Of a DNA stretch of 64,000 bases, positions 1-3,000 are shown piece after piece. Location: positions 13,190-77,189 of the forward strand of contig DAIDHZ010000002.1 of NCBI GenBank assembly GCA_027451825.1. Reading direction: 5' to 3'. Made by a program: the position numbers. Position 1 is the first letter of the stretch; each line of letters opens with the position of its first letter. The DNA is from Chlamydiota bacterium. GTDB lineage: Bacteria > Chlamydiota > Chlamydiia > Chlamydiales > SM23-39.

Positions 1-3000
1 TGCTTTTTCCACTGCTTCTGTCTGTTTACCTTTTGAGATTGTTTCTCTCAATCCATGCTGGTACCTGCTCATCTCATTTTCTCCTTTTAAGAAACTCTCG
101 GCCGTTGGTTTGAAAATGGAGATGAAAAGTTTTGTTAATAAGTTTGCGTTTGTAAATTCATGTAGAACTTGAGCGTAGACTGGGTCAGTAGGGAATTCTA
201 GCCCGTGACATGGTTTTCCGTCTTTGAATGTTTCTTCTATAAATATGAAATCCATTGAGTTGCGCATACATTCTGGTTCTTTATCGAATAAATATGGCCT
301 CTCTAAGAATATTGGGAAAATTATACGAGGATCTGACTCTGTAGCGAATTTCTTTGCCTGTTTAAAACATTTCCAAATTTTTGAATTTCTACCCAATATC
401 TGAGGGACATCTTCCTTGAATTTGTCATGATGTGTGCCTAATAAAAATCCTTTAAGGGTTCCATGATGATCTTTAATTTCATAGAATATGGGGGTCATAT
501 ATCCAGCCTCGCAATGAAGGAACTGAGAATAATGATTTTGGGTGAAATATTGACTCAAATCTACAGGATGAGGCATAAAACTCATAAATTTAATGAATTC
601 ATAATTGTAGCAATAATTAGCTAAAAATTAAATAATATAGATTGTTTTAATTCGTGAAAGTTTTTCTTTTGCCTGAAAGAGGACTCCGGGCCTGCCCGCC
701 GGTTCGCGCTTGCAAAGCGCTCACTTCTCGTCCTCTCGTAAAAGCAAAATTGTTTGCTTTTACTATTCAGTCAAATAAATTTGCCTGAAGCCGGAATCGA
801 ACCGACGACCTTCGCATTACGAATGCGCCGCTCTACCAGCTGAGCTATTCAGGCTTAAGATCAATAGACAATATCTCGAAAGAGTGTATATTTGAAGCTA
901 AAATTTCTTTTATGCGCAAGGGTGCTTTTCACTACTTTTCATTGGGTTTTTTGCTGTTTATTTGGATTAGCTTGTCCAAAGAATCGATGGATGGCGTTCG
1001 GCAATTTGCCGTTGCATCTTTGGGGCCTGCATGGAGATTTTCTAAAGAAGTGAGGCGCTATATGGACGATCGGCCTCATCGCTTTTGGAGAGTCGATTCC
1101 AATCATAAGACAAAAATAGCTCAGTTGGAGTTGGAAAATCAGATTCTTCGCTCTGAATTGGAGAAAATGAATCGATGGCTCGTTTCAGAGGAAAAGATGA
1201 AAATGCAGCTCGATTTATTGAGCCGGCTAGAAAAGCAAAAAGAGAGAGGCTCTTCCGAGTTTTTACGTGCCTTTGTTGAGAGACGGCAGCTTCATCTTCG
1301 ATCCATCATTCAAAATGAATTGTTGGCCATTCCTGCAGAGGTTATTTATCGAGATCCTTCTTTTTGGAGCAGCAGCTTATGGATTGATGTAGGAGAAGAA
1401 GATAATGAAGCTTTGGGTAGAGTTGTTGTGGCAAATAACAGCCCCGTTGTTTATGGAACGACTTTGGTTGGCTTGATTGATTACGTAGGAGAAAAACAAT
1501 CAAGAGTGCGTCTTGTAACAGATTCAGCTCTCTCCCCTTCCGTTCGTTCTGTTCGAGGAGATATTCAACAGCGTGAAATGATAGAGCATGTTCGTTCATT
1601 ACTGAAGTATACGAAAGGAGATGATCGATATGCGCATTTGGAGAGTGCGCTAAAGCAGTTTCAAGAGACATTGGCAATCAAAGAAGATCATTATTTAGCA
1701 AAAGGAGAAATTCATGGGAGCAATTCCTCCTTATGGAGATCGAGAAGCGCTTCTTTGCAAGGCGCTGGATTTAATCTTTATTACGCAGATTGCGATAAAT
1801 CGCCTTTGAATGATGAAAACATTTTGCGTGAAGGAGATATTTTGGTAACAACAGGTCTTGATGGCGTTTTCCCTCCCGATTTAAAGGTGGCCGTTGTCAC
1901 TCAGATTTCAAAAAGACCCGGAGGATATGCTTATGATCTTCAGGCAGACTCTTTGATTTCCGATATGAGTGAATTGCAGACTCTTTTTGTTTTATCTCCT
2001 CGAGGAGAGTAGGTTTTCTCTCGCTTTAAATTTCGGTGTCTTGGAAAAATAAACCACAGAGATAGACACCACAGAGAGAGGCCATGAATTCTACGTTTCA
2101 GATGATGAAGTCTCCCATTACGGAGGAGGATGCTGATCCTCTTACAGGTAACGTCATCGGCGCTGCCATCGAGGTTCATCGATTCTTGGGACCTGGATTG
2201 CTTGAATCAGCCTATCAAACCTGCTTGCTTTATGAACTACGTCTGAGACGACTTAAAGTGGAGAGCCAGAAACCTCTGCCTATTTTTTATAAGGATGTGA
2301 TGCTCGATTGTGGGTATCGTCTTGATTTGGTCGTAGAAAATCAGGTGGTGGTGGAGATCAAATCTGTGAACGCTGTCGCAGGAGTTCATGAAGCGCAGTT
2401 ATTATCTTATCTAAAATTAGGCGAATATCGGGTGGGTCTTTTGATTAACTTTAACGTGAAAATTCTTAGGGACGGCATTCGGCGGATGCGTGCTTAGTTT
2501 ATTTTCTCTGTGGTGTCTATCTCTGTGGTTTATTTTTTAAACACGCATGTGTCAGGCACTCATTTGTCTCATTTTGTCGCATTAATTAGCACAAGTTAGT
2601 CGGGAGGTATTGTGCGTTTTTGGGTTATTTTTCTCTCTTTACACTGCTCTTTTGCGAATTCGATGTTTCTTTCTCAAGAGCAATTGGAAGATTTGAGCGC
2701 ATATCGATTGGACGAGGAGTATTTAAAACAATTTCCCAGTTCTTTGTATACAGTGTATGAGACTTTTCATGGCCATTTTTATATAGAGAATCCATCGGAT
2801 TGCATTAAAAATTTTTTGATCTCAAATCGCTCTTGGGAGCCGCATGTTTCAGATTGCATTCAGAAGTATGGAAAGCCGGGTTCGATCATGATCGATATCG
2901 GCGCCTACATTGGTGTTCATACTTTGGAAATGTCTCGAGTGGCAGAAGTGGTGATTGCATTTGAGCCTCAAAAAAAAATTGCAAGAGAGCTCATTTGCAA

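Follow-up and report, generated by a model that had tools for sequence, protein, structure and literature searches.

A GxxExxY nuclease-like gene bracketed by inverted heptamer arrays in Chlamydiota and other phyla: a candidate compact mobile cassette

Why should a small nuclease-like gene exactly fill the space between two complementary DNA arms, when the same arms also occur elsewhere without it? The question is raised by a 64,000-nucleotide (nt) stretch of a Chlamydiota bacterium genome (assembly GCA_027451825.1, contig DAIDHZ010000002.1, forward-strand positions 13,190 to 77,189), hereafter the window, numbered from its first letter. A previous reading of this DNA, which we call the original prediction, had described 33-bp perfect arms around a GxxExxY gene and regarded that gene as cargo inserted into, or mobilised with, a repeated hairpin. 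The arms (2045-2077 and 2505-2537, 33 nt of perfect complementarity) and the PF13366 gene of 137 aa are present as described, and one open reading frame (ORF; 2084-2497) fills the space between them. The best explanation, to which we assign about half of our confidence, is that the segment 2013-2595, with a well-kept core at 2045-2537, is a compact selfish cassette, in which the nuclease acts on heptamer-array terminal repeats and of which short hairpins are gene-less derivatives. The parts of this cassette are the following.

2013-2044, plus strand: left outer segment, directly 3' of the mreC stop codon (2010-2012)
2045-2077, plus strand: left arm, AAAAATAAA-CCACAGAG-ATAGACA-CCACAGAG-A, with heptamer units at 2055-2061 and 2070-2076, spaced by 15 nt
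2076-2081, plus strand: Shine-Dalgarno-like GAGAGG, 3 nt upstream of the ATG, sharing bases with the left arm's inner end and lying in the paired part of the predicted stem
2084-2497, plus strand: GxxExxY gene, 137 aa plus stop, with Pfam and NCBIfam matches
2505-2537, minus strand: right arm, exact reverse complement of 2045-2077
2538-2595, plus strand: right outer segment, common to the window and its closest relative (L388), containing CACTCATTTGTC (2557-2568)

At 93% identity the inverted repeat reaches 40 nt (2038-2077 and 2505-2544), with 427 nt between the arms, whose outer ends read ...GGTTTATTTTT and AAAAATAAACC. Each arm holds two CCACAGAG units. This heptamer has nine sites in the window against 0.99 expected, a number that none of 100 shuffles reached.

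Is this bracket a peculiarity of one locus? GxxExxY genes were collected from metagenomes by protein alone, which yielded 80 loci at 51-76% identity. Convergent arms bracketed 53 of these 80 genes, as against none of 2,881 control windows in the same loci, and 377 arms were counted in the real loci as against 7-14 in shuffles. Chance or artefact as the source of the gene-arm link is excluded by these shuffles and control windows. In this GxxExxY subfamily the bracket is general: the same design of inverted repeat is found around GxxExxY genes of an archaeon and of other phyla, for which the original prediction had proposed such a check. Over 88 GxxExxY genes, 58 had convergent arms, 16 a one-sided arm, 7 divergent arms and 2 none. 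The bracket persists down to 45% protein identity, the sole GxxExxY gene of a viral contig (L393) being armed as well. Among individual cases, L079 has a 43-nt repeat with the same arms as the window, L080, from a metagenome-assembled genome (MAG) labelled Anaerolineae, carries the arm variant CCACAGAGAGCACAGAGCACACCGAGG, and L078 shows a complete CACAGAG hairpin just upstream of its gene.

The arms share a common design, in which two to four tandem units C-R-C-N-R-A-G are arrayed and the outermost unit ends outward in TTNACC. Unit spacing is 8-9 nt in most lineages versus 15 nt in Chlamydiae. The unit itself varies from locus to locus (CACAGAG, CACGGAG, CGCAGAG, CGCCGAG, CGCAAAG, CACGAAG), yet both arms of one locus agree. 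Positions C1, C3, A6 and G7 were fixed by the search motif and their constancy is not independent evidence; the unit frequency matrix shows that the TTNACC end is conserved though it lies outside that motif. Loop lengths are bimodal: loops are either shorter than 150 nt and gene-less, or 300-600 nt long, and 52 of the 54 loops of the latter class hold GxxExxY.

Gene and arms also behave as one discrete unit. In the comparison between the window and L079, where the cassette lies between HtrA-like and M16 peptidase genes, homology covers 2047-2538 only, that is, from arm to arm. Neither arms nor GxxExxY follow mreC in the three closest mreC loci available (MreC identity 73%, 70% and 56%), and the window cassette is therefore an insertion. 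The reading that gene and arms behave as one discrete, horizontally moving cassette is upheld. Presence and absence differ elsewhere too: where one gene ends, the orthologous site is empty in L018, holds a short hairpin in L025 and, in L071, an arm together with a 48-nt duplicate of that gene end, the chlamydial orthologues (66-73% DNA identity) being too divergent for base-exact insertion breakpoints. Related phage contigs of about 94-95% DNA identity differ by a 49-nt insert with one three-unit arm, around which a target-like motif of about 12 nt is repeated. This insert (L233 5553-5560 versus L268 6769-6825; also L259 and L223) is located at a gene end and provides a new stop codon. Irregular local duplications adjoin arms in L268, L071 and L027. 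The site in the window is intergenic, with mreC (912-2012) upstream and an FkbM-type methyltransferase gene (2612-3430), a glycerophosphotransferase gene and mutY downstream. The FkbM-type gene is also missing from the relative L386, in which mreC abuts the glycerophosphotransferase gene and mutY; the mreC-mutY interval has therefore gained more than the cassette.

What kind of protein is bracketed in this way? The product of 2084-2497 matches PF13366 (PDDEXK_3; E = 1.4e-42, 145.2 bits versus a cut-off of 22) and TIGR04256 (GxxExxY; E = 6.8e-44, 149 bits versus a cut-off of 35), and the Pfam and NCBIfam search returned nothing besides these two, with no HUH/Y1 domain and no recognised transposase family. 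Residues G38-E41-Y44, D81, E91 and K93 are invariant in alignments of 28 and 108 sequences; in a set of 91 sequences D81 is invariant and E91 and K93 are conserved at 90% or more. The conserved D...ExK residues are the catalytic core of the PD-(D/E)XK nuclease fold, here in a minimal version. The AlphaFold model computed from the 108-sequence alignment is confident, with a predicted local distance difference test score (pLDDT) of 86.9, and has a helix-helix-strand core; a model from 28 close sequences reached a pLDDT of 44. Its structural neighbours are weak (E >= 1e-3, template modelling score about 0.4) and include Cas4 SSO0001, lambda and alkaline exonucleases and splicing endonucleases, matches that describe a minimal PD-(D/E)XK core. 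Sequence search found no solved structure, giving only insignificant RelE matches (E >= 0.17); the PADLOC defence library gave faint Cas4-like matches only, and PHROGs none.

Named homologues at about 65% identity come from Acidobacteria, Anaerolineae/Chloroflexi, Latescibacterota and a Methanophagales archaeon, and conservation of about 65% across phyla and domains fits horizontal spread. The family is large, with 21,802 clusters (50% identity) matching at E <= 0.001, and GxxExxY is entered as 'unknown' in one survey, which records multiple transfers from lineage to lineage (PMC3424549). In many homologues (e.g., P0069, P0087, P0108, P0117) the annotated N-terminus (ITTEHTENTE, TTESTEHTEKE) is the left arm in translation; such gene starts are probably wrong, the extensions being false. 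Database proteins P0121, P0122 and P0358-P0369, of 260-295 aa, contain two GxxExxY domains each and are probably fused or read-through tandem cassettes.

If the gene and the arms form one unit, where do the gene-less hairpins come from? An arm-first scan with CCACAGAGATANNNACCACAGAGA, covering one genome per species, found 77 stretches; environmental Chlamydiae MAGs supplied nearly all of them, frequently many per MAG, and the arms are a repeat family widespread in Chlamydiae. In the usual chlamydial form, a loop of 10-60 nt separates a plus arm from the minus arm that follows it. Loops of 400-500 nt contain the full GxxExxY gene (L027, L038, L074, L077). Between these two forms, the C-terminal 20-35 codons of GxxExxY stand alone in several loops of 100-250 nt or in arms at contig ends (L001, L041, L044, L014, L056), and intermediate loops retain 3' remnants of the gene or of its 3' untranslated region (L001, L041, L044, L090). 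At least some short hairpins therefore derive from gene-bearing copies. Because intermediate loops keep these 3' remnants, it is likelier that the arms are the element's own terminal repeats, and the short hairpins deletion derivatives, than that the gene is cargo dropped into a pre-existing hairpin. The original proposal of mobilised cargo hence stands insofar as arms do exist without the gene, and is weakened in its suggestion of insertion into a ready-made hairpin. One MAG harbours the same miniature variant at 6 or more loci, with inner stems that lengthen the hairpin.

Other cargo in chlamydial arms was ruled out, since every arm-first loop longer than 300 nt carries GxxExxY or a remnant of it; the apparent exceptions, L026 and L090, are neighbouring elements or ordinary genes. 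In one Parachlamydiales MAG, two contig ends (L027 1-900 and L055 5577-5738) show tandem duplications across the cassette-flank junction, where, on the left, a 57-nt unit of arm and flank is present five times and, on the right, a 92-nt unit of gene end, arm and flank three times. [quoted passage not shown]

Gene-less members of the same family are present in the window itself, one of them with a foreign insert.

23347-23664, no strand: decayed hairpin of the same family, with left ACCACAGAG at 23357-23365 and right arm TCTCTGTGTCCTCTGTGCTCTTGTGGT at 23630-23656
23415-23598, no strand: palindromic element 'B' of 184 nt, nested in the loop of the decayed hairpin, flanked by GT...GT and unrelated to the heptamer hairpin
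39650-39721, no strand: gene-less hairpin of the same family, with arms at 39652-39676 and 39695-39719 and a loop of 18 nt

The original prediction was accurate on both hairpins: the arms at 39650-39721 are those of the cassette, 18 nt apart and with 25 of 25 nt identical on the right, and the degenerate arms at 23356/23630 are real, the different insert that they enclose being the 184-nt element. The 27-nt arm pattern is matched at 39650-39676 (plus strand, three mismatches) and 39695-39721 (minus strand, two mismatches) where zero chance matches are expected; both mismatches of the right arm lie at its outer end, so that the inner 25 nt agree fully with the cassette arm. This hairpin begins 13 nt 3' of the stop codon of gene 38284-39633 (EPSP_synthase/MurA-type Pfam match) and, as RNA, has a folding free energy (dG) of -41.4 kcal/mol (z = -7.7). 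The decayed hairpin folds with a dG of -143 kcal/mol (z = -12.9), and Rfam had no match at E <= 1 around 23250-23750. A free copy of the 184-nt element, 100% identical and flanked by AC...AC, lies at 40953-41136; its arms read AGAGCCAATTGCAAAAC..., and the pair, with its GT/GT and AC/AC flanks, resembles a miniature transposon that was active recently and has a target duplication of 2 bp. Nesting of elements thus does occur in the source genome. A further inverted-repeat element is located at 51556-51717, with 25-nt arms that are 96% complementary and 112 nt apart; a 74%-identical homologue of it occupies 1029-1193 of the chlamydial locus L038.

What the sequences show is the architecture, how general and how discrete it is, the differences in presence and absence among related genomes, and the remnants of the gene in loops; from these we infer that GxxExxY is the enzyme that mobilises the arms, in the following manner. 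The nuclease would recognise heptamer arrays and cut at or near the arms, its candidate substrates being duplex DNA, extruded cruciforms or single-stranded hairpins. The cuts would promote copying or insertion of the element and could also yield the local duplications beside arms. Internal deletions would then drop the gene, and the short fold-back hairpins that remain, 39650-39721 among them, could still serve as substrates in trans and would be far more numerous than the gene-bearing copies. In AT-rich Chlamydiae the hairpins probably double as bidirectional terminators, a role that would account for their being tolerated just 3' of stop codons.

The relation between gene and hairpin may also be reversed. 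If heptamer hairpins were independent repeats, REP-like (repetitive extragenic palindromic) or terminator-like or moved by some other enzyme, GxxExxY could behave as a selfish homing nuclease that cleaves empty hairpins close to the loop, whereupon repair, using the arms as homology, copies the gene in. Homing endonuclease genes interrupt their own target, which also exists uninterrupted; empty hairpins do exist here and would be such targets if GxxExxY cleaved them, and a PD-(D/E)XK homing endonuclease, I-Ssp6803I, is known. Empty hairpins are indeed far commoner and wider spread than the gene and reach into phages, where exact three-unit arms were found in more than 227 viral-contig stretches (823 arms in 1.89 Mb), as short hairpins or solo arms between ordinary phage genes. 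Homing would also account for the exact fit of the gene in the loop, with a stop-to-arm distance of mostly 10-30 nt, and for repeat ends without target duplication; and the 184-nt insert at 23415-23598 demonstrates that hairpin loops accept other insertions. However, it leaves unexplained why hairpins across phyla and in phages share the same motif and the TTNACC end, the 3' gene remnants mean that at least some short hairpins, and arguably many, once carried the gene, and arms of 25-40 bp are marginal as repair homology. Homing strikes us as rather unlikely.

The solo phage arms show a modest bias relative to gene orientation (65 versus 38). Other cargo in phage 'loops' was considered and rejected, the contents being ordinary phage genes such as members of the N4 Gp49 family. 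In the phage contig L297, six solo three-unit arms (CTCTGCGnnCTCTGCGnnCTCTGCGGTTAA) lie in one orientation, intergenic and unpartnered (e.g., 1754-1780 and 3219-3245).

Do the arms act as DNA, or as an RNA stem? GxxExxY could be an ordinary host or defence gene whose arms work in the transcript or as operators, as a stem cleaved by RNase III, by occlusion of the ribosome-binding site, or as a terminator or stabiliser. The original prediction had pointed to RNase III-processed intervening sequences, and in geometry the likeness is real. The 23S rRNA intervening sequences of Coxiella and Leptospira carry an ORF in their loop, and the Coxiella one has a 28-bp stem within 428-444 nt (PMC4990558). 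As in the cassette, a stem of about 30 bp, made by terminal inverted repeats, encloses a loop of about 430 nt with one ORF of about 120-140 aa, there of unknown function, and their sporadic horizontal distribution and suspected selfish status are shared too. In contrast to them, the cassette is intergenic (mreC to FkbM) rather than in 23S helix 25 or 45, and its ORF is of the PD-(D/E)XK type where theirs is the four-helix S23p (PF05635); a motif regular expression, a weak test, found no four-helix S23p-type gene near arms in the loci DNA examined. Also in keeping with a role in RNA, the fold of 2030-2552 has an outer stem of 37 bp (dG -187.5 kcal/mol, z = -6.6) that includes the Shine-Dalgarno-like GAGAGG, and no sigma-70-like promoter was detected in 1850-2750. 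As the predicted stem covers GAGAGG and no promoter was detected, occlusion of this site in read-through transcripts is plausible as a secondary effect. Chlamydial hairpins consist of an A-tract, a stem and a T-tract just 3' of stop codons, which is the shape of bidirectional terminators.

The comparison of the two arms of each locus speaks against selection on an RNA stem. Over 58 gene-bearing loci (aligned repeat median 33 nt, median identity 87%), 64 mismatches would pair as G:U on the sense transcript, 71 would do so on the antisense strand only, and 129 are of the transversion type. There is hence no wobble bias between the arms in these loci (64 versus 71, p = 0.6), and the strand-specific, G:U-tolerant mismatches that a transcript stem would show are absent. 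TTNACC is conserved where mere pairing would not need it, which favours recognition of the sequence by a protein and not only pairing. Divergent, direct and solo arms occur, arms are found scattered as multi-copy repeats in their own right, with differences in presence and absence, and the Rfam scan of the window at the gathering threshold gave two tRNAs only and no match for the cassette. The RNase III comparison has the geometry in its favour and no RNA-pairing signature, and an ordinary gene under RNA or operator control is, in our judgement, an unlikely account of the locus.

Among known systems, a close parallel is the REPtron, that is, a REP-associated tyrosine transposase (RAYT) gene with its REP sequences or REP hairpin doublets (REPIN) (PMC3116915, PMC3337134, PMC3479197). 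In both, inverted copies of a dispersed genomic repeat stand on either side of a small nuclease-type gene, and the repeats form intergenic hairpin doublets that far outnumber the gene and lack an obvious target duplication. They differ in that the cassette enzyme is PD-(D/E)XK whereas RAYT is an HUH/Y1 tyrosine transposase (IS200/IS605-like), and in that the cassette arms are tandem heptamer arrays that are not self-palindromic, whereas REP is a 20-40-nt imperfect palindrome tagged GTAG/GGAG (or CGTC). In addition, the cassette gene can be multi-copy and spans phyla and domains, its arms also occur in phage contigs, and it is known here from sequence. The cassette is REPtron-like in architecture and lies outside the REPtron family by enzyme fold and repeat type. 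In L097 (1214-2391), four gene-less hairpins in tandem, with three-unit arms, loops of about 83 nt and a period of about 180 nt, adjoin the GxxExxY gene and resemble clustered arrays of REP or bacterial interspersed mosaic elements (BIME).

Other mobile systems match in part. Insertion sequences (IS) and miniature inverted-repeat transposable elements (MITEs) share terminal inverted repeats with repeated subterminal motifs, commoner gene-less deletion derivatives, presence/absence differences and nesting; unlike them, the cassette encodes no transposase of a recognised family, its heptamer ends lack a regular target duplication, and the whole gene-bearing element measures about 0.5-0.6 kb. The proposed likeness to integron attC cassettes did not survive. 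A promoter-less single ORF with an imperfect inverted repeat able to fold as a hairpin is common to both, but attC is a single 3' site with RYYYAAC/GTTRRRY cores that needs IntI, whereas here two arms bracket the ORF and the cores are absent, including GTTRRRY; no integrase was seen among the 25 of 61 window Pfam families listed.

How well does a nuclease that mobilises its own terminal arms agree with the remaining observations? Several of these weigh against it. We know of no PD-(D/E)XK protein this small that is a stand-alone transposase. Seven loci have their arms inside-out and one has them in direct orientation. Some copies occupy the same site in genomes only 70-77% identical in DNA, so that copies can stay stable for long. 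No GxxExxY gene occurs in the 1.89 Mb of arm-bearing phage DNA, and the protein-first scan of the whole viral collection gave a single GxxExxY locus; the arms therefore maintain themselves or spread with no gene in cis. In 291 hairpins, the sequence directly outside the heptamer repeats showed no target duplication of 3 nt or longer. Finally, in L389-L391 an outer pair of termini (GGTTCTTCCGACAAATGAGTRC) is inverted and flanked by an 8-bp direct repeat, ATAAAATC, and a separate conventional transposase could move this chlamydial outer element. An observation related to the inside-out arms is that of four genomes at 69-75% DNA identity (L091, L115, L150, L151), in which GxxExxY lies at the same position between two methylmalonyl-CoA mutase subunit genes; the arms there are inside-out, with TTAAC ends toward the gene, in a stable, unusually arranged insertion.

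The outer termini deserve separate consideration. In the closest copy, L388 (89% DNA identity), homology spans window positions 2012-2595; it spans 2014-2543 in L389 and also starts at 2014 in L390. In chlamydial relatives both the inverted repeat and the homology run past the 33-bp arms; the heptamer arrays of Chlamydiae form the inner portion of longer terminal repeats, which in one relative carry an 8-bp target duplication. The counterpart of 2013-2044 is the ...TTAATTATCAGYGTGTTGCAAAAATGAAC segment outside the arms in L389, L038, L014 and L056, and 2013-2044 is a degenerate relic of the longer terminal repeat; CACTCATTTGTC at 2557-2568 is a relic of the outer terminus GGTTCTTCCGACAAATGAGTRC of the relatives. 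In the MAG DATIHO01 the cassette occurs in three contexts that share about 92 nt outside the arm, the shared part ending in GGTTCTTCCGACAAATGAGTAC. L392 holds the composite element in the opposite orientation at the same site as L389-L391, in different samples; inversion between long repeats, re-insertion or an assembly effect could be behind this switch.

These features can be read in another way, in which the mobile unit is the outer element, with its GGTTCTTCCGACAAATGAGTRC termini and 8-bp target duplication, moved in trans by a standard transposase, and the heptamer hairpin with its gene is nested inside. The inverted termini with direct repeats on their flanks, the inverted copy in L392, the three contexts sharing about 92 nt beyond the arm and the nesting of palindromic elements in the source genome all agree with such a passenger status. 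Yet the outer termini are found in a few chlamydial loci only, while non-chlamydial cassettes and most chlamydial hairpins end at TTNACC. In the window copy the heptamer arms are perfect and the outer parts are decayed to relics, and the cross-phylum link between gene and arms would be left unexplained. As an explanation of the cassette at large we hold it very unlikely. For the chlamydial lineage itself, either long composite terminal repeats or a heptamer cassette nested in a conventional miniature transposon is possible.

What would the cassette mean for the GxxExxY family? In the full texts searched, the literature on GxxExxY, PF13366 and TIGR04256 held incidental mentions only, and nothing relevant was found on chlamydial palindromic repeats. 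Within this literature, neither the heptamer arrays on the gene's flanks nor their connection with dispersed hairpins seem to have been described, in line with the original statement that no bounding repeat was known for these genes. More broadly, and with less than even confidence, we suggest that GxxExxY proteins may be the nucleases of unrecognised fold-back mobile elements in bacteria and archaea, a PD-(D/E)XK counterpart of RAYT/REPIN, whose arms (TTNACC-CRCNRAG, two to four units) would have seeded hairpins through bacterial, archaeal and phage genomes. For annotation, the arms reveal that many GxxExxY proteins carry false N-terminal extensions (...TTEHTENTE...) that are translated arm. 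With inverted arrays of a 7-base motif as its fixed DNA partner, found around the gene and also, on their own, as dispersed hairpins, a very large family gains a bench-testable hypothesis. If the nuclease does act on the arms, an enzyme of about 130 aa would recognise a defined sequence, one class of hairpins between the genes of environmental bacteria and their phages would be accounted for, and the 'nuclease plus hairpin repeat' lifestyle, so far known for HUH/Y1 enzymes only, would have a second, independent origin.

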